Virus record (IMG/VR): IMGVR_UViG_3300028364_000013
Origin: a virus
Taxonomy: Duplodnaviria > Caudoviricetes
Reading direction: 5' to 3' (one strand)
DNA: 64,000 nt
Shown here piece after piece: positions 20,031-62,331 of the stretch (within the stretch, counting starts at the first letter, position 1; each line of letters opens with the position of its first letter). The notes under the pieces are model-generated. The model did no database searches and had not been told where the DNA came from. It was given only the letters and a program-made list of their open reading frames with translations. Both the position numbers and the translations under genes were made by a program.

Positions 20031-20280
20031 CGTGAAATATAAATTTATAATTTTAGAAAAATAAAGCCCGTTATTAACATATCGCCTAAAAAAGATTGTT
20101 TTAGGTAGAACATTTTAAAATCTCTTACGTATAAGATAATGAAAGAACAAATAGATTTATATTTTTTACACTTTGTAACATTTTGTAACATTTTGTAACT
20201 TTTTAAATCTATGTCGTTATACAGTCATAACCAATGACCGCAGGGCAAGACCTGCTTTGCAGTCGCAAAAAACAATTATT

Positions 20281-21156
20281 ATGAAAAATGAAAATGCATT
20301 TAACTGGGACATTAAGCAAACAGGAATTCTTGACATTAATGGAAACCCTATAAAAGGGTACAAAGAAATTACTCGTGATGACAATGGGTCAAGCATTGCT
20401 GTTATGAAAGAGTCTTATACGCCAATGACAACTCAACAATTCTCTGATACAGCAAACGAAGTTGCAGGTGCAATTGGAGGTTCTGGACTTATTTTTAAGG
20501 ATTGGAATGACAATAGTGTTGAAGGGCAAATGGGAGCTAACAAGCCCGTGATTACTTGTCAGATGGAAATGAGCGAGCCTCTTGAGATTGCAGGCTCAAA
20601 GATTGAAGGTAAGTTAACAATTGGTGTTGGATTTGACGGAGGGCGTAGCTTCTTTATTGGTCACACAAATACTTACCTTAGATGCACAAATGAATTCTCT
20701 TCAATTGTGAAGGACTTCAAAAGCAGACTTACTGTAAATAACATGGTAAGAGTTGAAGACATTATTAAAAACATTCAAACGTATAGAGATTACGAAAGAA
20801 ATTTATACGAAAACTTTGAGAGATTTCATAACACAAAAATTGATGAAAAGATTGTTCAAGAATGTCTTGCACGTCTTGTTGATTTGACTGTTGAAGAGAG
20901 AGCAATGACTGTTAAGGAGAGAAACACAGAGTTGTCTTCTCAAAAGTTGAACAAGATTGATGACATTACTGCAAGTATTAGAACAGAAATGGCAGAGCTT
21001 GGTAACAACGCTTGGGGATTATTCAATGGGGTCACACATTATTCTACACATATTATGAACTCAAGAGGTTCAAATGAGTTGAGTACAATGTTCGGAGCAA
21101 AGAACAAAGCAAACCAAATTGTTTATGGCTTAGGTCTTGAATTACTTGATGCATAA
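20281..21156 (+). CDS. DUF932-family (phage/plasmid) protein
   Basis: FDGGRSFFIGHTNTYLRCTNEF and NNAWGLFNGVTHYSTH motifs. Confidence 0.8.
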   Translation: MKNENAFNWDIKQTGILDINGNPIKGYKEITRDDNGSSIAVMKESYTPMTTQQFSDTANEVAGAIGGSGLIFKDWNDNSVEGQMGANKPVITCQMEMSEPLEIAGSKIEGKLTIGVGFDGGRSFFIGHTNTYLRCTNEFSSIVKDFKSRLTVNNMVRVEDIIKNIQTYRDYERNLYENFERFHNTKIDEKIVQECLARLVDLTVEERAMTVKERNTELSSQKLNKIDDITASIRTEMAELGNNAWGLFNGVTHYSTHIMNSRGSNELSTMFGAKNKANQIVYGLGLELLDA

Positions 21157-21231
21157 GATGCTAAACAACAAACTTAAGGAGAGCAGAAATGTTCTCCTTT
21201 TTTTGTGACCAATTTTGTCTAAGGAAAGTTT

Positions 21232-21325
21232 AGGGCAGGGGTGGATTGCCTGTCAAGGCTGTGCTCTTGACTTTAAGGCACAGGGCACTTATTCTTACCT
21301 TGCCTGTTTCACTCAAGGGACATAG
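21232..21325 (-). ncRNA. Candidate antisense-oriented small RNA from the reverse class A promoter
   Basis: Promoter 21326-21354 points left; only a 4-codon ORF; 3' end TCCACCCCTGCCCTAAACTTT resembles copy 1. Confidence 0.45.
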
Positions 21326-21411
21326 TTATAACGATAATGGTTTAAAAAGTTACAACCGTTGGAATTCTGGTTTTTAATTCATATTTATCAGAAAATCTAA
21401 AACCAACAACC

Positions 21412-21657
21412 ATGAACCTAAAAGAAGCAAAACAATTGTTTGAAGAAATAGTAGAACTTTGTTACCAGACAGAAAATCAACAACTGATTGAAACCATTGA
21501 ACAAATTTATCCAGAAGTAGAAGAAGCAACAGCAGTTTTTAAAGTAATATCTTCAGCTGAAGAATTACAAGTTATCATAAACGAAATAGAATTCCTTCCT
21601 GAAGAAGAAGAGGATGTCCAGGAGCTGCAGGAGATAATCGAAAAGTTGTCAGAATAA
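21412..21657 (+). CDS. Hypothetical acidic helical protein
   Basis: 81 aa. Confidence 0.75.
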   Translation: MNLKEAKQLFEEIVELCYQTENQQLIETIEQIYPEVEEATAVFKVISSAEELQVIINEIEFLPEEEEDVQELQEIIEKLSE

Positions 21658-21714
21658 CATAAATAATTTTTATTTGTAAAAGTCTTTGCGTATCTTTGTG
21701 CAAAGACTTTTTTT

Positions 21715-22284
21715 ATGCACAGAGGAATTATCATATACTTATCAATCCTGATAGGCTTAGCTCTTACAGCTGGGGGTAGCTATTTTATTATTGACAACCT
21801 AATAAAACCACAGGGGTTTATGTTCGAAGGAATCATGGCAGCAGGCCTGGGAATAACATTGCTTATGTCAGTAATCGTTGCCGCAACAATCGGAAAGGCA
21901 ATTATGCTGTTCGGTGAAATCCTGGAGCAGACAACAAAGCTAAATCAGGAAATTGTAAAACAAAGCCAGCCGCAATCCATATCCAGTATATTTCAGGGAA
22001 TGATGCCGCCAGGCTCAAACATGACTGTTACAAACCTGAACACAGGAGAAACATCATCCAATAAACCTGAACTGGGAAAAATGAGTGAGATGATTTTTAA
22101 CGCAATGGCTGCTGGCTTGAGCGGCAAGACAAATGTAGAACTTAAAGATATGAGTGTCAAGGAGTTAGAGAAACTCTTGGCAAAAGCTATTAAGGATGAT
22201 GACTATGAATCTGCAACAGAGATTAGTGCAATCCTGAAGGAGAAGAAGAATCCTGGTTCAGGTGACTCTGAAAATAATTCATAA
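21715..22284 (+). CDS. Membrane protein with C-terminal UVR (UvrB/C)-like motif
   Basis: Two hydrophobic helices; LEKLLAKAIKDDDYESATEISAIL. Confidence 0.65.
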   Translation: MHRGIIIYLSILIGLALTAGGSYFIIDNLIKPQGFMFEGIMAAGLGITLLMSVIVAATIGKAIMLFGEILEQTTKLNQEIVKQSQPQSISSIFQGMMPPGSNMTVTNLNTGETSSNKPELGKMSEMIFNAMAAGLSGKTNVELKDMSVKELEKLLAKAIKDDDYESATEISAILKEKKNPGSGDSENNS

Positions 22285-22319
22285 AAAATAGAACATTCTA
22301 AATTTATAAACGTATAAGA

Positions 22320-22453
22320 TAATGTAGGCTGAAAGATACCTACATTCTAACGAGATTTCCTTTTGGAAGTTTTAGTTGTCTATCCTGAAGGTGGAATATC
22401 CTGACGGAATTGTCTCTTATCAGAAAAGCTCGGTTTTGTCACCGAGCTTTTCG
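22320..22453 (+). ncRNA. Candidate small RNA from class B promoter 22289
   Basis: No ORF; 5' hairpin AATGTAGG/CCTACATT; terminator GAAAAGCTCGGT/ACCGAGCTTTTC. Confidence 0.55.
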
Positions 22454-22554
22454 CTTTTATAGTAAGTTGCTTCGTTACGAACAACGAAGTTGCAAGCAAA
22501 GCGGAAAATGAATTTATTCATTGTAACTTTTTAAATTCCTGTCGTTATACAATC

Positions 22555-22767
22555 ATGGGAAACCCAAATTCAAAAAAACACAAAGCAAACCACGCAGGCT
22601 ACAGAGATAAGCCAGGGCGTAGAGCAATTGACGCACTTTGCGGAATGTACGCTGCAATTGGTAATGTAGAAATTCTGGTTGGAACGCCAGGAGAAGGAAA
22701 GCCGAGACTCGGAACTCCAGTAAACAAAACACAGCCAAAACCAGGTACACAGCTTAGTTTATTCTAA
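22555..22767 (+). CDS. Hypothetical basic protein
   Basis: Bounded by class A promoters. Confidence 0.7.
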   Translation: MGNPNSKKHKANHAGYRDKPGRRAIDALCGMYAAIGNVEILVGTPGEGKPRLGTPVNKTQPKPGTQLSLF

Positions 22768-22820
22768 ATTGTAACTTTTTAAATTGACATCGTTATACAC
22801 TTAAATTAAAAACAATTATT

Positions 22821-23324
22821 ATGAAAAAGTATTTATTAGTATTAGCATTAGCAGGATTGTTCACTTCAATTTCAAGTTGCAAGAAAGAAACAATTGAACC
22901 GAAACCTGAACCAGACACAACAGTTGTCACAACCAATGAACCAGTAGCAATGAACCTTCAGGTTTATTCTTTTGATGACGGCAATGGATTTGCAGGATAT
23001 GACTTCAAAGTTGTCATAAAAAGCCCAAATGAGTCCGTTGACTCTTTGTCTACAACATTCTCCAATTATTCTGATGGAGTTACTTCACCAAACTTTGCAA
23101 CACTTCAATGTAATGTAGATACCAGTCTCGTTTATACGATAGACATATATGATAATGCAAATAATTATTTGTTAACTGTTCCTTTAGAGTTTCATTGGGA
23201 AGATTATATTCTGGCAGTCAATGATGATGCAAGTAGTACAATTACTGGAGAAGTATTTAACCATGATAACATAGAAACACAAAACGCCTCACAGGCTCAT
23301 GTTGTTTTAGCTATTGGTAAGTAA
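22821..23324 (+). CDS. Predicted lipoprotein
   Basis: MKK, hydrophobic stretch, then SSC-KKE; Bacteroidota-type lipoprotein signal. Confidence 0.75.
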   Translation: MKKYLLVLALAGLFTSISSCKKETIEPKPEPDTTVVTTNEPVAMNLQVYSFDDGNGFAGYDFKVVIKSPNESVDSLSTTFSNYSDGVTSPNFATLQCNVDTSLVYTIDIYDNANNYLLTVPLEFHWEDYILAVNDDASSTITGEVFNHDNIETQNASQAHVVLAIGK

Positions 23325-23422
23325 ACTTTGTAACTTTTTAAATTCCTGTCGTTATACAGATATAACATAACCTGCGTGAGATTGTTCATGCAGGTTTTTT
23401 AACCACATTAAAACTTAGAGAT

Positions 23423-23752
23423 ATGAAATTCGTTTACATTATTGAAATTGGACAGCTTAGCAAATTAGAGAACAAATTTAACTTCTATGACATGGAAGTG
23501 TTCCCAAGTCAAAAGGCAGCTGACCATGTTGTTAAAAATATGATTGAGTGTAATACCTCTGGAGATTTTGAAGAACTTGTTAAGCAAGGTGATGTTAGAA
23601 TTGAGAAGTCTGAAGAAGGCGGATTCAAGAGAGGTGAAGTTAGTCATACTGTTTATACTTACAATTGCATGGGGTCTGGATTCAATAACGTTCCTACCAA
23701 AATGACAGTGAGATACGTAGTTAGAAAAATGTTAGTAAACAGAAACTTTTAA
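23423..23752 (+). CDS. Hypothetical protein
   Basis: After promoter 23328. Confidence 0.75.
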   Translation: MKFVYIIEIGQLSKLENKFNFYDMEVFPSQKAADHVVKNMIECNTSGDFEELVKQGDVRIEKSEEGGFKRGEVSHTVYTYNCMGSGFNNVPTKMTVRYVVRKMLVNRNF

Positions 23753-23756
23753 TATT

Positions 23757-23942
23757 ATGGCAGACGCAAGAACAAAACAAACAAGAGTGCTTACTATTAC
23801 AATAGAAGTCTCTTCAGATGTAAAACTTCCTTCAGACCATGAGATGGTCTTAATTGCTGCAGCAGCTTCAGGAGCTATGGCAGACAAAGCAAAAGAGAAA
23901 GGGTTGACGCTCGATAACTTAATAACTCATAGCAATGACTAA
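23757..23942 (+). CDS. Hypothetical protein
   Basis: Adjacent ORF. Confidence 0.65.
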   Translation: MADARTKQTRVLTITIEVSSDVKLPSDHEMVLIAAAASGAMADKAKEKGLTLDNLITHSND

Positions 23943-24270
23943 TTTATTCTGGATACAAAAATATAGACAACAAATTTTCGCTCTGGAGCTTCTGGTGGCG
24001 ATTATTTTTGGACCTGCTCTGGCAAACATCCTGAGCGGCTCCGTCCTGTTAAGCCTGGTAATGATTGCAGCAGTTTTTCTATTTTTAGAAATTACTCTGG
24101 CTTTTACCAGGGTCACCTTTGCGAAGGTAGCCCATGAGAATACCAAGAAGATTTATGATAAGACACAGGCAGCACACAAAAAGATTAAACAGGACTACCA
24201 GGATATGACTGGTGAGCAACTGGACAAGCGCAGGGCAATACAGCATTCAAAAAAGAAACGTAAGCCCTAA
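23935..24270 (+). CDS. Membrane protein (2 TM)
   Basis: Hydrophobic N-terminal half, basic tail. Confidence 0.7.
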   Translation: MTNLFWIQKYRQQIFALELLVAIIFGPALANILSGSVLLSLVMIAAVFLFLEITLAFTRVTFAKVAHENTKKIYDKTQAAHKKIKQDYQDMTGEQLDKRRAIQHSKKKRKP

Positions 24271-24361
24271 GAAGGCAAAAACAATATAAACTAAAAAGAG
24301 ATTATCATTTGGTAGTCTCTTTTTTAATCACTACATTTGCTTACATAAAAATTAATTAGAG

Positions 24362-24598
24362 ATGAGACTTACAGTACACGTATCAGGCGCAAAGAAAGAC
24401 ACGCACGAAAAGAAGACCAAAGAAGGAATTGTTAATGTTAAAAAAACATTTAACACTCTATCGTTCTCAAGTGTGAACCCAGAAGATGTTGGAAGCATCC
24501 TAAACAAGATTAAAGCTGAAGGGCTTGGAGAGCCTACCAAGCATTACCTCTCTAACGAGAAGATTCCTGGTCACGCCAGAGGGAAAAGAAAAGCCTAA
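24362..24598 (+). CDS. Small basic hypothetical protein
   Basis: Host-type promoter upstream; terminator at about 24619-24650. Confidence 0.75.
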   Translation: MRLTVHVSGAKKDTHEKKTKEGIVNVKKTFNTLSFSSVNPEDVGSILNKIKAEGLGEPTKHYLSNEKIPGHARGKRKA

Positions 24599-24709
24599 AC
24601 CCTGAACACAAATATATGAAAACCTTCAGCTATGCTGGGGGTTTTTTTTTGTCCAGTCGGGACTGGTCAAATTCAGATTTGTAACTTTTTAAAAACACAT
24701 CGTTATACA

Positions 24710-24790
24710 AATGTCGATGCGAACAGCGAGACGGGTCTGGTCACCGAGGTGAACCGAAAGAGTAGACTCCAGCCTGCCTTATATTTTCTT
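24710..24790 (+). ncRNA. Candidate small RNA, AAGAGTAGACTCCA family copy 3
   Basis: Between promoters 24679 and 24832; GAGACGGG...AAGAGTAGACTCCAGCCTGCC. Confidence 0.55.
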
Positions 24791-25069
24791 GCCAACCATT
24801 TTGTAAGCGAATCGGAAAAAGATTTTATTCTTTGTAACTTTTTAAATTCTTATCGTTATACAAGTGTAGACAATGAGAGACACATCTACTACCCCAGAAC
24901 TGAAAAACTTATGGCAGGGTTAATCCACTCCTGCCCCAAACTTTTTTGCCCAATTTATTATTTGAGCCTGCTCCATCGAGCACGCAGTGCTTATGCAGAA
25001 TCATTCTTAATAAGCATCATTTAAAAAGTTACAATTTTATAGAACATTTGTTGATAACTTACGTATAAG

Positions 25070-26010
25070 ATAATACTAAGTAACTAACGAAAAAACACAT
25101 TATGAAAAATTACTGACATATAGAAATCTCCAAAACTTTTTAAGCAAACACCGACCATGCTCTGAACTCGTTTCTTAGCTCTTCTACGCACGCCATGCTT
25201 AGTGGTCCAATATGCGCTTAAGAATCCTAAAGATTTCTTAGATTATTTCCCATAATTTCTATGACAGTATTTTGCACCTTCGGATGCAAGACTAAATAGG
25301 ACGACCCAGAGCTCGACTTGCTTCTTGCACTCAAGCTTTGGTATAGTCCTATTTTTTAGAAATTTAGGTGATGCACATGTACGAACAATTTCAATATCGC
25401 CTAAATTTTGGAAATTTGGATGGTTGAGAAAATTCAGTACTATGGTGTGGGGAAATGTGGGATGTGCAGCACCGAATATTAAACTACCTCTTTTCGATGT
25501 TTTTAATACCTAACTATCTGATTATTAGAAAAAATAGTTATTAACATTACCAACCTTTCCCTAAATGCACCCCCTAAATTTCCATTTTTTAGGCTATTAT
25601 TTTATCCCACATTTCCCCACCCTCCACCACATAAAATTGCACCCTCTCCCGCTCCCTCCCAGCTCTCCCCAGAATCGACCTCAAATATTACCCACTTCTC
25701 CCTGATTTTATACCCCTAATATAAGCTGCTGGTTGGGGATAAAACTATGCCAATCCAGAGACAAAATCCCCTTATCTCCCCAGAGATATTACCCAGGTCA
25801 TCGTGACATATTTACACCCCTCCCCTTGCTCACTCTGACGTTTCACAACTCTCCCTATGCAAATTGTTATAAATTTAGAAAATGCCTATACAATACATCT
25901 ATTTAATGTTTCTATTTAATCGTGATGCTCTGGGTACAATCTGCTCCTGCAGAATCAAAATATCCCTATACAAAAAAAGGAGAACTGCTTTCACAACTCT
26001 CCCTATTAAT
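25070..26010. other. Long non-coding convergence region with inverted/direct repeats and a G4 motif
   Basis: 17-bp perfect inverted repeat 25447-25463/25604-25620; 18-bp direct repeat TTTCACAACTCTCCCTAT at about 25841 and 25989; many CTCTCCC tracts. Confidence 0.7.
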
Positions 26011-26018
26011 AACGCAAA

Positions 26019-26131
26019 TTATAATGACAGGACTCGAACCTGCAGCTAACTGAACCATTCAGTCGGATGGAGTCGAACCATCACTTCCTCTACCAGTAGG
26101 GTAGGTCGGATACCAATTTCGACACATTACA
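26019..26131 (-). tRNA. tRNA-like element with two T arms (pseudo/chimeric)
   Basis: TGTAATG/CATTATA acceptor; GTCG/CGAC D stem; T arms GATGG-TTCGACT-CCATC and GCAGG-TTCGAGT-CCTGT. Confidence 0.55.
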
Positions 26132-26134
26132 ATA

Positions 26135-26563
26135 TTACATTAATCTTCTATCAATATATTTACCTCCAGACCAAATCTCTACCTTGTTACTATCTTTAAT
26201 TAATTTAATTTCAGTTTCTCCTTCTGAAAAAAGAAATTTAACTAATGATTCTAAATCGTTTGGTTTAATTTGTTCTGGCTTTAGTTCATCTACCACAGAT
26301 ACTTGTACTGAATTTAAAAACCATTCCCAGCGTTCCTTTACAAAGCCTTTTGCTTCTTCTAAGGATTCAAATGACTCGCTTTCATTTGCTGTATCATTTT
26401 GCATGGTTGGAAAGTGGCAAGTAACAAAAAAAGCGACCTCACCTTTAACTTCCAATCTGGTTATCCAGGCAATCCTAATATTATTGTAAGATGCTGTTCT
26501 TGCCCACCTACCCATTTTATCTGGTTGGTCTGTGCTGCTGTATCTATTCGAGTATTCAATCAT
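26135..26563 (-). CDS. Hypothetical protein
   Basis: Start reassigned to the ATG at 26563. Confidence 0.75.
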   Translation of the reverse strand: MIEYSNRYSSTDQPDKMGRWARTASYNNIRIAWITRLEVKGEVAFFVTCHFPTMQNDTANESESFESLEEAKGFVKERWEWFLNSVQVSVVDELKPEQIKPNDLESLVKFLFSEGETEIKLIKDSNKVEIWSGGKYIDRRLM

Positions 26564-26909
26564 TTTTTTTAAGTTTGCACCATAGTTGACCACTCTTGTC
26601 TCTTGTGGTATTAATTTGTTCAACGTACCCTCTATCTCTATATGGAGATTCCTTAGAGAAAGGAATGGTTGAAATTGTTTCCATCTCAAACTCTATTGGA
26701 AAATATTTTTTAGATTGTTCTAAATACATAGGAATGTCTTTGTCTACGAAGAATGTAGATGCTACTATGTTATTAACTTGCGGGCTTTTAACATAATCAG
26801 CATCGCCAGAATGATATATTTTATTCGTAAAAGAATCGTGGTAATACCCTTTTATATCAGCAATTTCATCAACTACAACTGTTCCTTGTGGTAATTTAAT
26901 TCTTTTCAT
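26556..26909 (-). CDS. Hypothetical protein
   Basis: ORF track; operon context. Confidence 0.75.
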   Translation of the reverse strand: MKRIKLPQGTVVVDEIADIKGYYHDSFTNKIYHSGDADYVKSPQVNNIVASTFFVDKDIPMYLEQSKKYFPIEFEMETISTIPFSKESPYRDRGYVEQINTTRDKSGQLWCKLKKND

Positions 26910-26952
26910 TGTTCTTTTTATTAAAAATAAATAAATTTGGAATTCACCTTTA

Positions 26953-27402
26953 CTACGCTTTAATCTTATCTATGATTTCGTTAGCCAATTCAAGCTGTGT
27001 TTTTGCGTGGTCAAAGATTTCCTTTGTAATAACTTCTGCTCCATACAATTCATCTGCAGACATATTATCATTACAATCTCTAAGAGCATTCTTTATGTTT
27101 GAGAACTGAACTTTCTCTCCTATGACATCATAGAGTTGTTCCCATTCAGTATCCATGCTTCCAGGCTTAATGCTATCAATTCTAATGTAGTCAACATCAA
27201 GTCCGAATGTGGCATCCTCATCTCTCACTTTTATATATACACCAGTGAAGTCGCTGCATACTTTATCATCATTGCTTAGTTTAGCCTTACGCTCTGCCTC
27301 AAGCTCTTTACCAAACTTATCGACAAGTTGTGCCACTGTAATAGATTTAATGTCTTCAGGGGCATCTTTAAGCATTCTCCATATTCTTGACTTATTTTTC
27401 AT
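26953..27402 (-). CDS. Hypothetical protein
   Basis: ORF track; operon context. Confidence 0.8.
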   Translation of the reverse strand: MKNKSRIWRMLKDAPEDIKSITVAQLVDKFGKELEAERKAKLSNDDKVCSDFTGVYIKVRDEDATFGLDVDYIRIDSIKPGSMDTEWEQLYDVIGEKVQFSNIKNALRDCNDNMSADELYGAEVITKEIFDHAKTQLELANEIIDKIKA

Positions 27403-27796: not shown

Positions 27797-28231
27797 TTAT
27801 GAATTTTGTTTAAAGATTTCTGCAGACATTACAATAGAGCAATCTTCTTGAATTCCTTTTACTATAGCATCAATTGATTTCTTAAATCCTTGAATATCTA
27901 CTTCACCGTTTTGGTCTAAGTAATTTTTCAAAAACAATTTACATTCAAGAGAATTAATCATTGACGTATCTATTTCTGATATATGAACAGTTTCAACAGT
28001 ATGGTCATGTATATTATTTTTTTCAAGTGTATAGATACCACACCCATCTGACTCAAAGCCTTTATTTCTAAGTGACTTTTGAACTCCTGCAGCAGCGCTA
28101 TACTTAGATGGTGGGTCAACAGTTACTTCAATAGAGTATAGACTATCCTTAACTCTAACTCCACCTTGTTCAATACCCATAGAGTATTCGTCCTCAATAG
28201 TTTCTAATAGTGTTCTAAAATCTTCAAACAT
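27797..28231 (-). CDS. Hypothetical protein
   Basis: After class B promoter 28252. Confidence 0.8.
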   Translation of the reverse strand: MFEDFRTLLETIEDEYSMGIEQGGVRVKDSLYSIEVTVDPPSKYSAAAGVQKSLRNKGFESDGCGIYTLEKNNIHDHTVETVHISEIDTSMINSLECKLFLKNYLDQNGEVDIQGFKKSIDAIVKGIQEDCSIVMSAEIFKQNS

Positions 28232-28303
28232 AGTTAATTATTTATAATCTATTATACGCAAGAAATTTAGAAATGTTCTAAAATTTATCTTATAAAAGTT
28301 TAA

Positions 28304-29383
28304 TTAGTATTTAAGCTTCACCACTTTGGATACAATATCATTCCAGATTAATTCAGCTTCTTTACGCCTTGTCCTATGCGTGTTGCAATTAAAACACTGA
28401 CTCTCTTTACCAGATAGAAATTCGTAGCTAACACTTTTTGTGTATCCTGTCGTAATGAATTCTTCGAATCTAAGTTCTATCTTATCCTGGATGCCTTGGT
28501 CTAACAGAAATTTAAAAGTTTTCTGTATCATCTCAGATTTAGACTTAGATTTTCCATCTCTCATTTTACCAAGTTCTTCCAGTGGATTATTAGATACGAA
28601 ATAATAGAAAGGAGTGTTTCTAACACCTTTAATATACACTCCGAATACAGCGTGCATATTTTTATTCCAAATGTCTATAGAGGGTTCGAAATCACTTTGT
28701 ACAGAAATCTTATCTCTAAGTATAGAAATTTCCTCTGACATTTCAATAACATCTCTACCAAAGCTCATAATCTTCTGGTTCTTTTTATCAATTTCGCATT
28801 GCAATTTTTTCTCTTTATCAATGAGCCTTCCTATTCTCTTAGAGATTCTTCCTATCTCCTTATAACCTTCTTTAATCATTTTTTCGAACTTCATCTCACT
28901 ATCGTTAAGTCTTTGTTCTATTGAGCGTATTTTTAAATTGGTATAGTCATACTCTTCTTTAACAAGATGTAAGTCTATATGACTATCGTAGTCCTTAAAT
29001 TTAACTCCAGTCATCTCTAACTTTCCATACTGGTTTTCAATAAGGTGATTTACTTTTTCAAAGTCAAATTCTTTTGTAAGATGTTTTTTGGATAAACCCA
29101 GTTTATTGGATGGAATAGAGGAATTATATTTTGGCTTGAACTTACCTATGAAATATGCCTCCAAGTTATTTAGGTGGATGTTGTCTTCAACTATTATGTA
29201 AGCTACTCCATCAAAAGTTTTATCATTGTGCCCGCCAAAAGACCTTGATATTACGTTAAGGGATTGTCCAACGTAAACAACTCTATTATCGTGTACGAGA
29301 AAGTATATACCAGAGCCTCCACTAATATTAGAATCCTTAGATGATGAAATAACATCCTTATGATTTACTTTTGTTATTGCCAT
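28304..29383 (-). CDS. GIY-YIG nuclease-domain protein with coiled coil
   Basis: SGIYFLVHDNRVVYVGQS N-terminus; LEAYFIGKFKPKYN. Confidence 0.7.
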   Translation of the reverse strand: MAITKVNHKDVISSSKDSNISGGSGIYFLVHDNRVVYVGQSLNVISRSFGGHNDKTFDGVAYIIVEDNIHLNNLEAYFIGKFKPKYNSSIPSNKLGLSKKHLTKEFDFEKVNHLIENQYGKLEMTGVKFKDYDSHIDLHLVKEEYDYTNLKIRSIEQRLNDSEMKFEKMIKEGYKEIGRISKRIGRLIDKEKKLQCEIDKKNQKIMSFGRDVIEMSEEISILRDKISVQSDFEPSIDIWNKNMHAVFGVYIKGVRNTPFYYFVSNNPLEELGKMRDGKSKSKSEMIQKTFKFLLDQGIQDKIELRFEEFITTGYTKSVSYEFLSGKESQCFNCNTHRTRRKEAELIWNDIVSKVVKLKY

Positions 29384-30411
29384 GCCTTATTATAAATTTC
29401 ACAATTATGAATTGCCATAACCACATCTCTCATAGAATAGAATCTATATCTACTGCTTCCTCCATCATTGTCATAATCATATTCAGCATTAGGATTTTCT
29501 TCAGCACAAGTTTCTTGTGGGTGGGCTACATAATCTTTCTTAGCGTAATGTTCTTTTAATTCTGACACTGGATAGTATTTCATACTAAACAAAGCGTAGG
29601 CATCAGAGTAATCTGCTGGACAAATTGCATACTTTACTTCCCCATTGTTATCAGATAGATAAATTACTTTAAACTTTGGATTTATGTTTTCACTGGATAC
29701 TGTCAGTTTTTTATCTGCCTTATCAATAATATTTTGAAGTCTTGTCTCTATTGTTATAAAGTCAATCACTTTAATTTCATCTACGAAAAAGTTTCTTGGA
29801 TAGTCACTATTAGATTTTGTGTATCCGCTTATGTGCAATGCTTCAACTTTACCTGCACCAACAAAGTTTATAGGATATATAACTCTTTCGCTTCCTTTGT
29901 ATGTTATGTTAATATAAGAGTTTTCATCTATGGCTTTTTGAATTGAATCAATTGTATTTTTTACTTGCTTTGTTATTATGAATTCTCTTACTGGAGCTTT
30001 TGGTTTTGGCTTGGGTTTAATTATTTCTTCAAAAGCCTTGCATGCATCAATTGTATTTTTAATTTCTTTTCTTGATTGCTCCAGCAGTATTGTTAATTTG
30101 TCACGTTTCTTGTTTACAATATATTCATCTACCTCTTTAGTTTTATCAAAAGCCTGTTCAAGCATTTCTTGAAGTTTACAGTTCTCTCTGTAGTTAAAAT
30201 CTTTTATAAGGATTGACTGCTCCTTTAGGAGTGTTTTAAGTTTGCTACAGTTTTCTTCGAGGTGTGACAAGAAGTAATCTTCACTATGGGAACAACTATA
30301 CTTATTTGCATATGTTTCTTTACCAGTTCTCTTATACATTAGATTATCGAACATCGTTATTTTGGAACGTGTTCCATTGTATATTTTAAAGAAATAATTG
30401 CTTAAATTCAT
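29374..30411 (-). CDS. Coiled-coil plus WYL-like domain protein
   Basis: INITYKGSERVIYP...RNFFVDEI resembles the WYL fold pattern. Confidence 0.55.
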   Translation of the reverse strand: MNLSNYFFKIYNGTRSKITMFDNLMYKRTGKETYANKYSCSHSEDYFLSHLEENCSKLKTLLKEQSILIKDFNYRENCKLQEMLEQAFDKTKEVDEYIVNKKRDKLTILLEQSRKEIKNTIDACKAFEEIIKPKPKPKAPVREFIITKQVKNTIDSIQKAIDENSYINITYKGSERVIYPINFVGAGKVEALHISGYTKSNSDYPRNFFVDEIKVIDFITIETRLQNIIDKADKKLTVSSENINPKFKVIYLSDNNGEVKYAICPADYSDAYALFSMKYYPVSELKEHYAKKDYVAHPQETCAEENPNAEYDYDNDGGSSRYRFYSMRDVVMAIHNCEIYNKAWQ

Positions 30412-30534
30412 ATATTATTATACGCAAGAAATTTAGAAATGTTCTATTTTTATGACACAACAGCCTCTTTCTCTTTGCTAAGATAGAATTCTTTGTGCAT
30501 GTTTTTTATAAAATTCATTGTTGTAATTTTTTTG

Positions 30535-32784: not shown

Positions 32785-33147
32785 TTATTTGTTTCTACAA
32801 AGCCCTGTACAATTGCATTGTCTAACATTATCTCCATAGCAGAAATCTTTTCCTACTACTTCAACTGCAGTTACTCTGTCTATGTCAATTTTAGCTTGTT
32901 GTCCTTTTTTGAATATGTCTATAACAACTTCGGACCACATGTTTCTTTCAATCCTTTCAGCTTCACCAACAAAGGTTCCATCTAAGTCAATAAACTTCAC
33001 TCTAACCCATGTCAATAGTCTTCTAAAATTAGAATCCCTCTTGTAGGCTGTTTCGTAATTATAGCTTTGATTGGTAGAGATAACTTTTCCTGTAGTAACA
33101 TCAACAAGATAAGGCACCTCAACAAGTTGTCCTTCTTTTATTTCCAT
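32785..33147 (-). CDS. Hypothetical protein
   Basis: ORF track. Confidence 0.75.
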   Translation of the reverse strand: MEIKEGQLVEVPYLVDVTTGKVISTNQSYNYETAYKRDSNFRRLLTWVRVKFIDLDGTFVGEAERIERNMWSEVVIDIFKKGQQAKIDIDRVTAVEVVGKDFCYGDNVRQCNCTGLCRNK

Positions 33148-33716
33148 TATTCGAATTCTTGGTCAATTATTTTTTGAATGAAGGCTGGTTTGGCAACTTT
33201 TATTAGCATCCACCCACATGTCTCAGCGTTTTCTATTCTACGCAAATAATCATTTACACATCTTTCTCTTGCGTTGCACTCTGTAATGTACTTAGATAGT
33301 TTGTTGGTATAATTCTCCAGTACTCCATTGAACTTTAACTCTGGATACTTAATCATAAGTGCGCTTATGTTTTCCACATCACTTGGATTCATGTTCTTGA
33401 ACATTTCCTTTTCGTAATCTGGGTACAGCTTGGTCAAGGAGTCGGTTATCTCATCCTTATATTCACTCATCTCTTTCTTAATGGACTTAACATCTCTTAG
33501 GTTCTCTTTGATTTCGTTGAAGTGTCTGTTTATCTCATTTCTAAACTCCATGTTACGAAATGCTGATATGATAAGAGTAACGGTGCTTGCTATTAGTCCT
33601 ATGACTCCTACAGTAATTGCAGCGTTCCACCAATTGCCAGCAGGCAAGAAAGTACCAGTAGTAAATCCTACTGCGGATATGAATGCGAATAATAGTATTG
33701 TGTAGATAAAATTCAT
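33147..33716 (-). CDS. Hypothetical membrane protein with coiled coil
   Basis: After class B promoter 33739. Confidence 0.8.
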   Translation of the reverse strand: MNFIYTILLFAFISAVGFTTGTFLPAGNWWNAAITVGVIGLIASTVTLIISAFRNMEFRNEINRHFNEIKENLRDVKSIKKEMSEYKDEITDSLTKLYPDYEKEMFKNMNPSDVENISALMIKYPELKFNGVLENYTNKLSKYITECNARERCVNDYLRRIENAETCGWMLIKVAKPAFIQKIIDQEFE

Positions 33717-33768
33717 TGTGTAGTTTTTTAGTTATGCGTTATACGTTCTAAATTTAGAAATGTTCTAT

Positions 33769-34319: not shown

Positions 34320-34847
34320 TCAATTTTTAGAGGATTTCTTTAAAAAGTTTTCCTCAATATTTTTTTTGTTTGCGTGTTCTAACATCTGCTCATTCAAAAA
34401 CCATTCATCAATAAATTCAGCCACTCTTTTTCTTAATTCTTTTATCTTCAACTCTTTATCATCATCTTCAAGGTTAGAAGCTATTCTTGGATATACATCA
34501 TATAGATTAAAAAGAACAAGGTTTGCATCAAAACCATCTTTATCTAAATCACCCATAAAACGATACCAATCAAAACTAATTCCAATAGACATATCGGTTT
34601 CAATCATAACAACATTGCCATCAGAAGAATTAACAATTTCTTCAATCTCTTCTTGTGTAAGTTTTTCTTCTTTATAATGCAACCTACTCAACAGATAATC
34701 AATAGTATGCTTAATGCTATTATTAAGGTCAATATTTACGTCTTCTATTCCTGCAAGTTCATTAATCATTCTTTCATATAAAAAGACTTTGAAGTCATTT
34801 ATAAACAAATCAATTATAAATTCTTTTTCCCTTCTACTGTGGTACAT
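34320..34847 (-). CDS. Hypothetical protein
   Basis: After class B promoter 34888. Confidence 0.75.
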   Translation of the reverse strand: MYHSRREKEFIIDLFINDFKVFLYERMINELAGIEDVNIDLNNSIKHTIDYLLSRLHYKEEKLTQEEIEEIVNSSDGNVVMIETDMSIGISFDWYRFMGDLDKDGFDANLVLFNLYDVYPRIASNLEDDDKELKIKELRKRVAEFIDEWFLNEQMLEHANKKNIEENFLKKSSKN

Positions 34848-35051
34848 ATTTTATAGTTTAATTTTTTATTATTTATTTACCGTTTTATTATACGTTTCTA
34901 AACTTAGAATGTTCTATTTTTCCCCCGCTTATTTATGGAATAGTGTTTAAAACTTTTGAGAATTCAGCTATTGGTGAATCGTCTAATTAATCAACAGTTG
35001 TGTGGTTTTTCTTATTTCTCCTGGCTATTAGCCAGTCTGTTAATTTTTCTA

Positions 35052-35981: not shown

Positions 35982-37259
35982 TTAGTTATTAAGTTCAACA
36001 ATGTAAGCAATCGTGCATCTCTTTGATTCATAGACAATAATCTCATCATTATACAAAGAGCTTCCAGCGTGTGCGAAAGTACAATCGTAATCACCTTTGC
36101 TATCAAGTTTGCTTTGACAAAGACTTGAGTCTGATGAAGTTACATCATATTGTCTTCCTATGTGTACATCAAACAAAGCCAAGTATCCTTTATTGTCATT
36201 TCCTCTTGCCCAGTAAGAGCCAGAAAGAGATGAATATCCAATAGACTTCTGTGCTTTGTTGGAAAAGTAAATACCATCACCAAACATTGACCCTGTGTGT
36301 TGAACACCAGATGGACGAATAAGAAGTCCAGTCTGAATAATGTTAAACCAGTTCTCATTTCTTGAACCGTGCCACAATAGCAATCTATTTTTTAAATTGG
36401 CATTGGCATAGTGTGCATCAAACTTTGCTTGAGTTGATTTATTTACACACTTGAACAGTCTGCTTAATTGATTTGCGTTATTTCCAAGCAATTTCTTTAC
36501 AAGAGCAATTGCTTTTGGGTCTTTCTCTTCTGTAACTTCAAGCCCCATCTTATCAAGAAGGTCTGGCGCTGCTTTGACTTCATCCTCTTCTTCCTCATCT
36601 TCATCAGATGCGTTTTGAGTAATCATTGCCACCTGACCAGCCATTGTATCAAGAATAGACTGCTCATTGGCAATGAAGTCTTTCATTTCTTCAATGGTGT
36701 AATCATCTTCATTTAGCAAGAAGTCTTTAACGTTGCTCATCTTTCTTGGGATGGTAGCATAAAGTTCCAATAATTTTTCATTTATTGGCTCTATCTTATT
36801 TGCCTTGGTAGAATTGTTTCTCACAATTACTGCGGCAGCATCAATGATTGCTTGTGCGTTGTCAACCTGCTTCTGTGTTACATCTTCTTGTGTAATCTTA
36901 TAGTTGGCACCAATGGACTTGTTTGCGTATGCCATAAGGTCATCAAACAATGCTTGCACCTCTGCTTCAGAGATATTTACAATTCCAGTAGATTTTTGTG
37001 CTTGCTTAATTACAGCTTCATCAGTCTTGTCTACATAACCTTTTCGAGCTGAAGTCTTTTGGTTATATGTAGCATTCCACTTAGATGAAGATTTAACATC
37101 AACAGCCATTTTTGTACCAATCCTTCCATAGGTACATCTAATTGTTCCATTGGATTGCTCTTCCATTATGTAGACTTTGTTGGACTGACTTGTCTTTCCG
37201 TTGTCTACACTAACATGTATTAGTTTGGCATATCTCAGCCCGTCCTCTTTTGTTATCAT
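35982..37259 (-). CDS. Poly(ADP-ribose) polymerase-like protein (WGR + helical regulatory + catalytic)
   Basis: N-terminal SNKVY...YGRIG (WGR-like); LYATIP (PARP_reg-like); WHGSR...GSMFGDGIYFSNKAQKSIGY...NDEIIVY with H-Y-E triad. Confidence 0.88.
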   Translation of the reverse strand: MITKEDGLRYAKLIHVSVDNGKTSQSNKVYIMEEQSNGTIRCTYGRIGTKMAVDVKSSSKWNATYNQKTSARKGYVDKTDEAVIKQAQKSTGIVNISEAEVQALFDDLMAYANKSIGANYKITQEDVTQKQVDNAQAIIDAAAVIVRNNSTKANKIEPINEKLLELYATIPRKMSNVKDFLLNEDDYTIEEMKDFIANEQSILDTMAGQVAMITQNASDEDEEEEDEVKAAPDLLDKMGLEVTEEKDPKAIALVKKLLGNNANQLSRLFKCVNKSTQAKFDAHYANANLKNRLLLWHGSRNENWFNIIQTGLLIRPSGVQHTGSMFGDGIYFSNKAQKSIGYSSLSGSYWARGNDNKGYLALFDVHIGRQYDVTSSDSSLCQSKLDSKGDYDCTFAHAGSSLYNDEIIVYESKRCTIAYIVELNN

Positions 37260-38087: not shown

Positions 38088-38169
38088 TAACGCTGTTGTT
38101 TGAAAGTTATACGAAAAAAAAAGAGGAATGTTCTAAAAACTTCCTCTTTTATTATATCTTGTAAAAACA

Positions 38170-39865: not shown

Positions 39866-39903
39866 AGCTTTTGTTATACGTTATAAATTTAAAAATGTTC
39901 TAT

Positions 39904-44203: not shown

Positions 44204-44224
44204 ATCTTTTTATACGTAATTAAT

Positions 44225-45618: not shown

Positions 45619-46194
45619 CTATTTCCACTGATTATAATCGTCAATACAACATTTCTTAAGTTTCTTATCACTACCACAAGGACACTTGTCATTTCTGCTA
45701 AGGTCTGTTATATATGGTAATTCAGATACAAGCTTTATAACTTCTTCGACACCATTGATGTGATTAAGTTCATGCTGCCAAACTTGTGCTTGAAAGCCTG
45801 TGTGAGTTTCTTTGTGAAGTTCTCCGTCTGGAGTATAGAATTCTACATCTACGTGATAATATCTATCAGCAACCACAGTCATCCCTGGAACACCTTTCCA
45901 AGTTAAGCACCCTTCAAACTTCACAAGCTTGATTCCGTAGTACTTTGTAATCTTTGGGTCAATAGCTATAACTGTATCATTTGTGCCAGATGTTTTAACA
46001 GCAACCATTCTTAGATTAAATCTTTCACCATCTAGGCTGCATTGATTAGCTGCAAGTCCAACACCATCTCTTCTTGAGATAGCATACTCCTTGAAGGTTT
46101 CAATTTCTTCCTTGTGCTCTTCTATAAATTTAGAAACATCCTTAATCTCTGGTGTGATTGGTGTTTGCTCGTCAATTATTACATCAAATTCCAT
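45619..46194 (-). CDS. def: Peptide deformylase with C-terminal SEC-C motif
   Basis: GVGLAANQ, EGCLT, QHELNH motifs; RNDKCPCGSDKKLKKCC. Confidence 0.9.
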   Translation of the reverse strand: MEFDVIIDEQTPITPEIKDVSKFIEEHKEEIETFKEYAISRRDGVGLAANQCSLDGERFNLRMVAVKTSGTNDTVIAIDPKITKYYGIKLVKFEGCLTWKGVPGMTVVADRYYHVDVEFYTPDGELHKETHTGFQAQVWQHELNHINGVEEVIKLVSELPYITDLSRNDKCPCGSDKKLKKCCIDDYNQWK

Positions 46195-46229
46195 AACTCT
46201 TTATACGATATAAATAGAGAAATGTTCTA

Positions 46230-46962: not shown

Positions 46963-47031
46963 AATTCAATTAATTATACGAAAATTATCCCTTTTTGTTT
47001 CATATTTATTAATAAACCTAATATAATTAAC

Positions 47032-55265: not shown

Positions 55266-55317
55266 AGTTTCTTATACGAAAAAAAACCCCAGATGTTCTA
55301 TCTGAGGTTTAGTTTTT

Positions 55318-55873: not shown

Positions 55874-55924
55874 ATTTCAAATATAATACTTTTAATTGTT
55901 ATACGCAAAACTATTCCAAATGTT

Positions 55925-56587
55925 CTAACTCTTAAGCATTTTTTTAAACGCTGCCATAGAAGTGACAGAACCCTCTTTAAGCTTGTATTTACTCTCAAGA
56001 CCTCGACACAATACATCAAATTTCTTTTCAAGTGATGCATGCTTCTTTTCCAATTTCTCTAAATCTTCCTTAGCGTTGATGTAGCCCCACTGGTATTTTC
56101 CGAATAGCATTTTCTTAATGTCGAATTTTCTCTTGTGAAGAAGAGGTGCTTGCTTTATCACCTTTGTTGAATGTACACTATCTCCTACATATATGAGACC
56201 TGCGTACTCTGGAATCTCACTCACATCAATAAGGCCATGTGGACATGCAAAGAAGAACCTGTTCGGCATCTTTACTGTTTGTGGGTTTACTTCTTTCTCT
56301 GGAGACCTTCTAATCTGCTTCTTCCATCGCTTGCTGTATCTGTACTTAGCATCTTTGGTAACAGAGTCCTGCTTTCTGCCTTCAAACAATTTGTGCTTGA
56401 ACTTCAAGAAGTCAGCAGCATAGTCAGACTTAGAAATCTTAACTTCAACTTCGTAAATATATCCTGATTTAGCAACAGAAAAAAAATCTGATTCCCAATC
56501 ACTACCAAAAATATATCTATTATGAAAATGATGGTCGTGAGTGGAAAACAGATTTCCTATTATGTCTTGTATTTCTTTGGCGTTCAT
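55925..56587 (-). CDS. PD-(D/E)xK nuclease-like (MmcB-like) protein
   Basis: WESDFFSV...YEVEVKISKSDYAAD...FFFACP...PEYAGLI. Confidence 0.7.
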   Translation of the reverse strand: MNAKEIQDIIGNLFSTHDHHFHNRYIFGSDWESDFFSVAKSGYIYEVEVKISKSDYAADFLKFKHKLFEGRKQDSVTKDAKYRYSKRWKKQIRRSPEKEVNPQTVKMPNRFFFACPHGLIDVSEIPEYAGLIYVGDSVHSTKVIKQAPLLHKRKFDIKKMLFGKYQWGYINAKEDLEKLEKKHASLEKKFDVLCRGLESKYKLKEGSVTSMAAFKKMLKS

Positions 56588-57180: not shown

Positions 57181-57188
57181 AACTATTT

Positions 57189-59026: not shown

Positions 59027-59058
59027 TCTTTCTTATACGCAACAAAAACAATAATGTT

Positions 59059-59481
59059 CTATTCCTCTTCGTAAGAATCTGATTTTTCATGATTATGAAG
59101 CATGCACATTGTCTGATAATTCTTAATGTGATTCTTTCCACCTTTAGATTTTGGTTTGATGTGGTCTATTGTAAGCATCATGAGGTCGCCTTCGTGGTCA
59201 TAAGCATAAAGGTCCAAGTGGATTCCTCCACCGTTATCCTCTCCAAGTCCAAAGTGATAACCAGATAACTCACATCCAGAGTCAACACACTCAACACCCA
59301 GCTCAAGCAATATAAGTGCTCTTCTTAGCTTTATCTTTCTATCAGTAATCTCTTCATCCAAAAAAACTCAACGTCTCCGTGAGCTTTAATATCATCTATT
59401 GGATAGGTCTTCAGATTTTTCATCACCATCAAGGTTGTCAAAAATAGTTAAAACCGCTTTGTTTATGTTGTCAAAATTCAT
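59059..59481 (-). pseudogene. HNH endonuclease; 5' part interrupted by two compensating homopolymer indels
   Basis: LTIDHIKPKSKGGKNHIKNYQTMCMLHN; the upstream ATG at 59481 is in the same frame with internal stops between the A5 (59416-59420) and T7 (59360-59366) runs. Confidence 0.65.
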
Positions 59482-59681
59482 GTTAATTCATTTTAATTTT
59501 TAAATAATTTTCTCTGGCCTCTATCTTCTTTTTTAAGTACTCCTGATAGAGTTCTTCATTGAATCCTATTTTTGGACCATCCCAGTAGGATTTGTATTCT
59601 TCTAAAGTTTTATCTTTTTTAGGCATTTGTTTTACTAAAAAATGGAAGTGCCAATAAATATTATGACACTTCCATTTATTT

Positions 59682-60059
59682 TTATTTTTTTAGAGCCACT
59701 AACTCATCAATAGATAATTCTTTCATATCTGATTTTTGTTTTTCAAAAATCAAAGCATCTATCTCTTGATTATGAAGTTTTGTAGCTGCAGCATTTTTTT
59801 CAGCATCAAACTCTTGCTTTTTAGTAATATATATCTCTTTCAATACATCGAAAATAAGTTTTTGCTCTGAATCTACAGCCATATTTTCATCAAGAAATGA
59901 TAACTCATCATCATTTTCTTTTTTAAGTTTTTCCTTAACGTTTTTAACTATTATAGATAGTTTGTTAAGACTAAGGTCCCAAAGTTGTTCAACAGACAAA
60001 GGTCCTTGTGAAGTTTGTATTCTCAATTTTAATCGAGAAGCTTTCATGAAATTGTTCAT
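59682..60059 (-). CDS. Hypothetical protein
   Basis: FMKASRLKLRIQTSQGPLSVEQLWDL; paired with the 717 aa ORF. Confidence 0.85.
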   Translation of the reverse strand: MNNFMKASRLKLRIQTSQGPLSVEQLWDLSLNKLSIIVKNVKEKLKKENDDELSFLDENMAVDSEQKLIFDVLKEIYITKKQEFDAEKNAAATKLHNQEIDALIFEKQKSDMKELSIDELVALKK

Positions 60060-60078
60060 AATTTTTGTTTTTTTATTA

Positions 60079-62232
60079 TTAATTGAATTTTACTTTTATT
60101 GTTCTTTTAAATGTTCCATATAATTTTAAAATCAAATCATCTTTTACTGTGGCATTAAATCCAAGTCCACACAGTTGTTTTTCAGTAGGCTCAAGCATTG
60201 ATGTTAGACCAACTACCTCCATAACCTTTCTGTGGCCAACAAGCTCTGAGTTTAAATTTTCATTATGAAAACTCCTAAGTGAAACATCAGACCTACACCC
60301 ATCAATCATAAACATATAATGTTTATTTCCTGAATTATTATCACCCCAATGATTAGGGGAAAGACAAACAAGATTAACCTTATGAAATTGATTTGTGTCG
60401 ATGTTGAATATACTTTTACTTACAGTGTTTGATGAGGTGATTTCCATTTTTTCTGAAGTTTCAATTTTAAATTCACCATCTTTTAACTTAATTATACAAA
60501 CCTCTGCAGTATTTCCATTACTCCTGCTTTTATCAAATTTTAATGAAGTTATTTCACCACCATGCTCTATTTCAATAAAAAAATCAGCCTTAAATCTATT
60601 GCCACTATAATCAACGATATAAACTTTATATGAACCATTTTTCATTTTGTTTAAATCAGAATAAGTTATATTCTCAACTCTTTTTTCAGGTGTTTGATTT
60701 CCATCAACACCTTGAGCATCCAAGTCAAGCATTCCTGAAAAAGGAGATTCTTTTCTCACATTTCTATAACATATATCATATCCACCTGGTTCTTCTAAGT
60801 GCAAATCATAATCATTAGTAGTATCTGGAAAATGAAGTCTGACATTTAACACTCCATCAATATTTCCACCCCTACCTTTTACAGCTTCCTTAATTAGTGA
60901 TTTTCCAGCAAGATTTCCTCTAAATGTCCAAGAAAATGGATTACTCCACTTGAACATGTTTTTAGATTCCTTATCAACAGTTGTTAACGCTACAAAGTTT
61001 CCACCCATTCTATTTTCAACAAAAGCCTCAACAGAAGTACATGTTGGAAGTATGTCTGACATAAACTTTTCAATAGACACTTCTTCTATTCCATCAAACT
61101 GACTTCTCTTGTGTCTTGTTGGTTTTGATGGTATAACTGAATCAAATACAGAGGCGGTTTTTACCTCACCACTTCCAACATTTGAATGTAAAATCTCATT
61201 TACATTAATATCATCAATTGTAGCAAATCTCCTTTTAATAGAATTATCAGTATATCCTAATTCATAGAAATCTTTCATGGCCACCTTTTTCATAGACTCA
61301 GTTAATGGAGCTGTTGCTTTCATGAAGTTTGCTGGGTCAACACGCTTATTCCAAGTTCTACAAGCAGTGTTAAGCTCTACACCCTCTGCTAATTCTACGC
61401 AAAGAGTTCCTATTAGTTCGTTTCTAAATTTAGAGAAAGGAAGATTGTAAGAAGTTACCCAACACCAATTATCTTTTTGTTTACTGGATAATTTTTCATA
61501 TTCATTTTTGAATGGGATTATTTGCTCTATCTTATAAAGATGAGTTTTACCATCCAACAAAGAACCTTGGTTTATCAAATCTCTAACTAACTCAAGAGTG
61601 TCAATTGGAATTTCTTCAAGACCTCTCTTAAACACATCTTTTGATTGTCTGTAATCAGATAAAATAGTTGCTTGTGACTTTCCAGAAGAATCAACAAACT
61701 TTTTATTCAAAACACCATGAAAGTGGAAGAATTGATATGACTTACCTGGAGTTACAACTCCAAACTTTTCAGCCTCTTCTTTAGTATATGTTTTAAAGTT
61801 ACTCTCAAAACCAAGTTTATAAACTATTTGACTTTTATTTATTTTTTCATATGGCAAATCATTCAACTCATCAAAAGTTTCAAAAAACACATCTTTTATT
61901 GGCGCACTCTTTAATATTTTTGACATGTTCTCACAAGAACTACGATAAACATCATCTTCTTCTAAAACTAAGTCCCACATGGTAACTATTTTGTAAGATT
62001 CATCAATGGCTACAACATTACCATATCTTCTAATAAAAGATTTATCAAGATTACAATTGTTAGTCGAACTCTCTGGGTCTCTAAAAACAGGGTTGTCTCC
62101 TTTTTTAAAAGATGATATGTATAAATCCCATAACTTATTACCATCCACAGATGACCTAAATAATTTACCATTATTTTGAATATCTGAGAATCTCTCTTCT
62201 ATTTTTTTTGAAAATTCACTAAATTTTGACAT
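60079..62232 (-). CDS. Large hypothetical protein with a YfaP/DUF2135-like module
   Basis: 717 aa; DYDLHLEEP...LDLDAQG...VENITY; after class B promoter 62257. Confidence 0.8.
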   Translation of the reverse strand: MSKFSEFSKKIEERFSDIQNNGKLFRSSVDGNKLWDLYISSFKKGDNPVFRDPESSTNNCNLDKSFIRRYGNVVAIDESYKIVTMWDLVLEEDDVYRSSCENMSKILKSAPIKDVFFETFDELNDLPYEKINKSQIVYKLGFESNFKTYTKEEAEKFGVVTPGKSYQFFHFHGVLNKKFVDSSGKSQATILSDYRQSKDVFKRGLEEIPIDTLELVRDLINQGSLLDGKTHLYKIEQIIPFKNEYEKLSSKQKDNWCWVTSYNLPFSKFRNELIGTLCVELAEGVELNTACRTWNKRVDPANFMKATAPLTESMKKVAMKDFYELGYTDNSIKRRFATIDDINVNEILHSNVGSGEVKTASVFDSVIPSKPTRHKRSQFDGIEEVSIEKFMSDILPTCTSVEAFVENRMGGNFVALTTVDKESKNMFKWSNPFSWTFRGNLAGKSLIKEAVKGRGGNIDGVLNVRLHFPDTTNDYDLHLEEPGGYDICYRNVRKESPFSGMLDLDAQGVDGNQTPEKRVENITYSDLNKMKNGSYKVYIVDYSGNRFKADFFIEIEHGGEITSLKFDKSRSNGNTAEVCIIKLKDGEFKIETSEKMEITSSNTVSKSIFNIDTNQFHKVNLVCLSPNHWGDNNSGNKHYMFMIDGCRSDVSLRSFHNENLNSELVGHRKVMEVVGLTSMLEPTEKQLCGLGFNATVKDDLILKLYGTFKRTIKVKFN

Positions 62233-62331
62233 GTTTTTAATATTAATTTTATTTACTTATACACAATTTATTATAAAATGTTCTAAATAGAACATTAATA
62301 TTTATTGTACTGGGTAATTTTTATGGAAGAG

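Follow-up and report, generated by a model that had tools for sequence, protein, structure and literature searches.

Which promoters does a phage sigma factor read when two promoter classes surround its gene? The question is raised by a 64,000-nt stretch of phage DNA (hereafter the window), the reverse complement of positions 279-64278 of a 142,155-nt IMG/VR virus contig, which holds two bipartite promoter classes, here called A and B, and a gene at 19070-19711 (+) for a SigW-like sigma factor of the extracytoplasmic function (ECF) type, 213 amino acids (aa) long. Taking the conservation of both classes in related phages together with the kinship of the sigma, we propose that class B is read by the host core polymerase carrying this phage sigma, and that class A, a copy of which lies immediately upstream of the sigma gene (19012-19040, +), is read by a different, fast-evolving factor. 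We give this assignment, which is drawn from sequence comparison, a probability of roughly two in three.

Two promoter classes and their conservation

Class B, written as T-R-R-AACA, 15 nt, CGTATAA, is found without mismatch 16 times in the window, as against 0 in 100 dinucleotide shuffles, and 22 times in the 142-kb contig. A weight matrix built from these 22 copies finds 26 contig sites scoring at least 19.6, 19 of them in the window, where shuffles yield 0-1, and the score distribution is bimodal with an empty gap from 14 to 19.6. AAC is present in the -35 box of all 26 sites (as TAGAAC in 19 and TGAAAC in 4) and lies exactly 16 nt from CGTATAA in 25 of them, the remaining site having TGTATAA; three of the window sites are near-matches (5598-5626 (-), 17667-17695 (+) and 62257-62285 (-)). 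Twenty-four of the 26 are intergenic, and all face either the tRNA cluster or a co-directional gene. A start codon follows CGTATAA by 5-8 nt at 10 sites and by 19-40 nt at another 10, and the first of these arrangements implies that many class B mRNAs are leaderless or nearly so. Class A was found independently by a dyad count, as TTGTAAC, a T5 tract and the -10 box TCGTTATA; its 74 copies, 71 of which are on the plus strand, form an island that starts 19 kb left of the window and extends to 24857. Class A has AAC and CGT 15 nt apart, whereas class B has them 16 nt apart, and the scores of the two classes do not overlap. At the level of sequence, these data confirm class B as a genuine ECF-type promoter class, separate from class A.

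The original prediction for this DNA had likewise proposed class B as a second class distinct from class A, and exact or near-exact class B sites account for both ends of the region that it marked, 20106 and 62285. It ascribed the same 7-15-7 geometry to the two classes, which is literally true but conceals the one-nucleotide difference between AAC and CGT. Its segregation of class B to the opposite genome arm is partial: 15 of the 19 window sites are on the minus strand, at 28-62 kb and at 5598, but the four on the plus strand, at 17667, 20106, 22289 and 25040, alternate with the last class A promoters, and seven further sites (five on the plus strand, two on the minus) lie outside the window, left of the class A island. 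Similarly, we found PARP and peptide deformylase in what had been called a metabolic arm, but that name is overstated, most genes of the class B arm having no family match. Three further points of the prediction held up: class B serves the tRNA cluster through the site at 5598-5626 (-), 28 nt upstream of tRNA-Met; a host-type TAnnTTTG promoter overlaps class B near 5600 (and does so again at 55878-55909 (-)); and the TGAAACA variants are of SigW type, TGAAAC being identical to the SigW -35 box (PMC5758882).

Homologues of the sigma, 36-94% identical, occur on syntenic metagenome contigs with ParB-like, DUF723 endonuclease, ATPase, sigma and DUF932 genes, and we compared nine related lineages whose sigma identities are 75, 71, 68, 64, 62, 60, 55, 50 and 36%. 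In 8/9 related contigs (R)RAAC-N16-CGTATA(A) is kept, at 2-5 copies per locus, and the conserved sites include one ahead of the sigma unit and one between sigma and DUF932; the ninth contig, a 4.9-kb piece, has no class B copy. Class A behaves in the opposite manner. Its -35 core is GTAAC in three lineages and in this phage, and otherwise GTGAC, GTGAG, GTCAC, CCGAC, GTGAT or a T-run, and its -10 boxes among the lineages are CGTTAT, CGCTAT, TGTTAGA and GACCTATAA. Within each genome the class A copies are near-identical, and in every lineage with sequence at that position the lineage's own variant stands directly upstream of the sigma gene. Both behaviours can be seen together in the spacer between sigma and DUF932, where 7/7 aligned sequences agree fully in the class B boxes and in the leader TAACCAAT downstream, and the class A boxes lying between them are each lineage's own variant.

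The sigma is present in all ten lineages examined. Within its sigma-4 region no column tracks the class A -35 changes, and the helix N-ST(L/M)RT(A/S)(V/I)xRG is identical across the GTAAC, GTCAC and CCGAC lineages compared. Moreover, in two lineages class A has neither AAC nor CGT, yet the sigma and class B are retained, which leaves class B as their sole remaining ECF-type promoter. Both the sigma and class B are missing from a more distant relative (G006, 67 kb), but this is a fragment and carries little weight.

The sigma factor and the reader of each class

The window sigma matches PF04542 at 56.9 bits and TIGR02937 at 81 bits, the latter over positions 1-165 of 165, with a weak region-4 match to PF08281 (21 bits, below cut-off), and like group 4 ECF sigmas it has only the sigma-2 and sigma-4 domains in ~200 aa. 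Its top NCBIfam family and its top PDB structure are both B. subtilis SigW. The gene has its class A promoter immediately upstream and a class B promoter 1.4 kb upstream that heads its unit. Beside it there is no adjacent co-transcribed anti-sigma gene: a strong intrinsic terminator (19850-19877, +) and a non-coding unit lie downstream, and genes for an ATPase and a 325-aa helical protein upstream. An anti-sigma partner is not universal among ECF groups.

Additional evidence is provided by cellular homologues of the sigma. Within 260 nt upstream of 18/80 of them we found GAAAC-N16-CGTA, a density of 0.87 per kb where the value elsewhere is 0.009; AAC-N15-CGTT, with the geometry of class A, does not rise above background ahead of the same 80. 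SigW promoters are known to carry TGAAAC and CGTA, with CGTA giving SigW its selectivity (PMC5758882). Class B thus agrees with the promoters of B. subtilis sigma-W (ECF01) in the AAC of the -35 box, the 16-nt spacing and CGTA, in addition to the TGAAAC variants. It differs in that the phage most often has TAGAAC as its -35 box and extends the -10 box to CGTATAA, no RsiW-like anti-sigma adjoins the gene, and the setting is a phage of Bacteroidota-type hosts rather than a Firmicute stress regulon.

Only one sigma gene is recognisable in the 142-kb contig, the one inside the window. A phmmer search with the sigma against the 277 contig open reading frames (ORFs) gave no paralogue; weak region-4 matches considered as a second sigma proved to be GIY-YIG and HNH homing endonucleases, and a 251-aa gene behind a good host-type promoter, considered for the same role, is ParB-like instead. 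A protein identical to the window sigma is present on a 364,053-nt contig, and the 142-kb contig is part of this ~364-kb genome. The two ECF specificities of the original prediction survive to the extent that two readers are needed and the window has one sigma gene, but the pairing it implied, of the sigma with class A, is probably reversed.

We assign the sigma to class B because class B is constant in the relatives that keep the sigma, class A changing without any change in the sigma helix, and because the characterised and cellular relatives of the sigma use TGAAAC-N16-CGTA. If so, host core RNA polymerase with the sigma of 19070-19711 would transcribe class B, which would drive multi-gene accessory, nucleic-acid or NAD (nicotinamide adenine dinucleotide)-related units on both sides of the class A island as well as the tRNA cluster. 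The sigma would first be induced from the class A promoter directly upstream and would then reinforce its own expression by positive feedback from the conserved class B promoter further upstream. We infer both the reader of each class and the timing, which would run from the class A reader to the class A genes, including the sigma, and then to class B; the three-tier cascade of the original prediction is plausible in this respect. The class A reader would co-evolve rapidly with its ~74 promoter copies; no candidate for it was found in the 142 kb.

Several observations weigh against this assignment. AAC and CGT are also present in the class A of this phage, so that the same sigma could cross-read it. 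The sigma-2 loop is variable, and a few sigma residues (82, 100 and 101) differ between the CGT and CGC lineages, a difference which may reflect ancestry alone. The sigma does not reach the SigW equivalog cut-off (100.7 vs 209 and 81.3 vs 243 bits; NF007223 / TIGR02948), and by these scores it resembles SigW but is not a member of the SigW equivalog. Bacteroidota homologues have no upstream motif, which we attribute to the gene sitting inside an operon. Lastly, our sigma search covered 142 kb of the ~364 kb, and it is possible that a host ECF sigma reads class B.

The most direct competing explanation is that the window sigma reads class A and autoregulates from 19012, with class B left to a second ECF sigma, encoded by the phage or by the host. 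In every lineage class A stands immediately ahead of the sigma gene, which is what would be expected of an autoregulated ECF sigma, class A here does have AAC and CGT, and the remaining 222 kb may encode more sigmas. However, at least seven class A variants exist among relatives in which the sigma-4 helix is constant, the sigma is kept in the two lineages whose class A has lost AAC and CGT, its characterised and cellular relatives use the motif and spacing of class B, and in phage cascades it is normally the preceding class that transcribes the sigma gene, all of which make this explanation improbable. We regard as quite unlikely that one sigma reads both classes, A and B being strong and weak or differently timed versions set apart by a cofactor or by the -35 T-tract. 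Here AAC, CGT and TATA-like -10 tails common to both classes in this phage, and the tandem A and B promoters at 20106/20193, are on its side, as is the documented overlap in ECF sigma recognition and its modulation by a T-tract beside the -35 box (PMC5758882), but the scores are bimodal without intermediates, the AAC-CGT spacings are 1 nt apart, and in relatives the class A boxes diverge while the class B boxes do not.

There is also little to be expected of a third explanation, in which a conserved host SigW-like ECF sigma reads class B, the phage copy boosts or replaces it, and class B could fire immediately on infection. The cellular family is widespread across Bacteroidota, Ignavibacteria and Zixibacteria and uses GAAAC-N16-CGTA, and a conserved host reader would suit the constancy of class B; yet all ten phage lineages examined keep their own sigma, and in five genomes of Crocinitomicaceae, a candidate host family to which several of the nearest cellular homologues belong, neither class is enriched, AAC-N16-CGTATAA falling below control. 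We retain the phage sigma as the favoured reader of class B. As for class A, we tentatively suggest that the motif and a fast-diversifying reader, perhaps a divergent sigma delivered with the virion, form a private specificity pair, in which the ~20-74 copies per genome switch in concert (at least seven variants) and the class B/sigma pair stays frozen. This is a possibility to which we hold loosely. The RNA polymerase-promoter pairs of T7, T3 and SP6 offer an analogy for class A only, in that all copies change together between related phages, which implies a dedicated reader evolving with them, but class A has a sigma-type bipartite geometry, and neither a phage RNA polymerase nor a second sigma is found in the 142 kb searched.

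Class B units and neighbouring elements

The four plus-strand sites of the window lie near the sigma gene and the right end of the class A island. The site at 17667-17695 (+), within the 3' end of the 325-aa gene, heads a small ORF, a RadA/KaiC-like ATPase gene and the sigma gene; it is kept as TGAAACTT..CGTATAA at the same position in all relatives, and is likely the autoregulatory promoter of the sigma unit. At 20106-20134 (+) class B is in tandem with a class A promoter (20193-20221), and both precede the DUF932 gene. The site at 22289-22317 (+) has a conserved hairpin downstream instead of an ORF (window 22318-22350; L013:13925 and L098:13120 in related contigs), whose paired stem substitutions (GTAGG/CCTAC vs GTGGAG/CTCCA) suggest a structured RNA, and that at 25040-25068 (+) marks the right edge of the class A island, with no ORF for ~500 nt.

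The 325-aa protein itself (16718-17695, +) is all-helical, with a model of predicted local distance difference test (pLDDT) score 83 and predicted template modelling (pTM) score 0.86 and no match in the PDB. It exists in two forms, of 325 and ~363 aa and ~35% identical, which are swapped between otherwise close lineages; we rejected it as class A reader or anti-sigma, the two forms not tracking the class A variants. In one relative a gene for an IS605 OrfB / Cas12f-like TnpB is inserted in the syntenic region (L017:11321-12514).

On the minus strand, class B units of the window include PARP, peptide deformylase, a HAD_SAK_2 phosphatase-like protein and a weak P-loop kinase match. From left to right, the sites at 28252-28280 (-), 30418-30446 (-), 33739-33767 (-) and 34888-34916 (-) precede genes at 27797-28231, 29374-30411 (its ATG 6 nt past the -10 box), 33147-33716 and 34320-34847, respectively, and the site at 38107-38135 (-) precedes an operon of a P-loop kinase-like gene, PARP (35982-37259) and a 213-aa gene. 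They are followed by 39874-39902 (-), with an ATG 8 nt past the -10 box, and by three TGAAAC variants, namely 40762-40790 (-), an exact match, 44210-44238 (-), with an ATG 6 nt past the -10 box, and 46974-47002 (-), which has the lowest score (19.6). Peptide deformylase (45619-46194) has its ATG 6 nt past the -10 box of the site at 46201-46229 (-). The remaining sites are 55272-55300 (-), again with an ATG 6 nt past the -10 box, 55899-55927 (-), which is overlapped by the host-type TTTG / TAttTTTG-like promoter at 55878-55909, the exact match at 59033-59061 (-), and the near-match with -10 box TGTATAA at 62257-62285 (-), 24 nt upstream of a 717-aa gene (60079-62232; phrog_1735). The spacers at 38107-38135 and 55272-55300 have long T-runs after G/C-rich bases and may at the same time supply the U-tract for the terminator of the preceding unit. 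Left of the class A island, the genes behind class B sites encode NAPRTase, a CCA-adding/poly(A)-polymerase-family enzyme, an AAA_33 kinase-like protein and small proteins. Two class B promoters overlap there back to back on opposite strands, at ~109830-109880 of the 142-kb contig (window -45602 to -45551), one facing the CCA-adding/poly(A)-polymerase-family gene, its partner facing a small gene that precedes NAPRTase.

The tRNA cluster (5159-5569, -) consists of one Met-CAT and two Glu-TTC genes and lies antisense to the class A island, behind the near-match at 5598-5626 (-), which has AACT in its -35 box and a weight-matrix score of 24.2. One tRNA-Glu(TTC), at 5237-5321 (-), is given by ARAGORN as 85 nt with a long variable arm and falls below the Rfam tRNA threshold. 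The host sigma-A-type promoter (TTTG, spacer, TAtaTTTG) at 5605-5637 (-) overlaps the class B site, and from this overlap a dual promoter is predicted for the cluster. Overall, TTTG, 17-23 nt, TAnnTTTG occurs at 23 sites against ~11 expected (~2-fold), ~10 of which are well placed; TAnnTTTG by itself shows no enrichment (214 vs ~215 expected), nor do E. coli-type sigma-70 consensus sites (49 vs 52). A promoter of this host type also stands inside the class A island upstream of the gene for a 55-aa histone H1-like Hc1 protein (4861-5028, +; PF07432, E 3e-8).

Many class A and some class B promoters are followed by a leader, AACCAA(T/A)AAA (window 631-24860; in relatives, for example, L013:41-15600). 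It occurs 109 times where ~60 copies would be expected, and 32 copies have an ATG 5-20 nt away, with a peak 10-14 nt upstream of the start; the leader is identical in lineages with differing promoter boxes, and it may be a translation-initiation or 5'-end element. Class A also drives short non-coding units with conserved 5' parts, such as GAAGCCCGACA..GAAACAGCAGTCGC in relatives (window 10879, 19911 and 24681; L010:2434, 3198 and 10706; L013:2204 and 10747; L098:2012, 4356 and 10800). Recurring in one genome as well as in different ones, these units look like a family of small RNAs.

Host, precedents and meaning

The nearest matches of the PARP gene are in Cellulophaga phages. Among phages the closest relatives of the sigma are in crAss-like and Lak phages, and its closest cellular relatives, with Crocinitomicaceae among the best matches, are ECF sigmas from Bacteroidota, Ignavibacteria and Zixibacteria. 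Judging from these matches, the host is likely a member of the Bacteroidota. The phage DNA is present in lake-water metagenomes, a search for RNA runs containing window 17001-27000 listed none, and the 142 kb contain no structural genes. A megablast search of GenBank phages with 20 kb gave no close relative, and when IMG/VR was scanned for the sigma, with the single protein and with a profile, only two loci came up, both 28% identical and lacking both motifs.

Sigma genes in phage cascades are usually transcribed from whichever promoter class comes before them (SPO1 gp28, then gp33/34; phiEco32 gp36 with gp79). Here too the local class A variant precedes the sigma gene, but the preceding class is a second bipartite class of ~74 copies and not one of host primary-sigma type. 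The promoters of phiEco32 gp36 consist chiefly of a -10-like element, AATGTA, unlike the AAC/CGT pair seen here. In phiEco32 (PMC12276001) a sigma of the phage is known to bring the host's core polymerase to the phage's own promoters, and the SM6 sigma-ECF class of Flavobacterium psychrophilum (Guerin 2021, PMC9723704) resembles the phage classes in the AAC of its -35 box and the CGT of its -10 box. Our literature search found no description of the class A or class B motif in phages, and a paper on 'moraphage' lists the shared sigma without promoter analysis. The strategy of bringing one's own sigma is known; what is new here is the pairing of two promoter classes with opposite evolutionary behaviour.

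Taken together, these comparisons offer a wiring diagram of how transcription may run in a group of uncultured Bacteroidota jumbo phages, about whose promoters little is known, and would correct the natural assumption that a sigma reads the promoter immediately before its gene. Class B and the 213-aa sigma are also a candidate orthogonal expression part, and the orthologous sites, with class B frozen and class A switching fast among natural variants, lend themselves well to the study of the evolution of promoter specificity. If class A and its reader do form a private pair, they would be a sigma-type counterpart of the T7/T3/SP6 divergence, isolating the early-gene transcription of each lineage.

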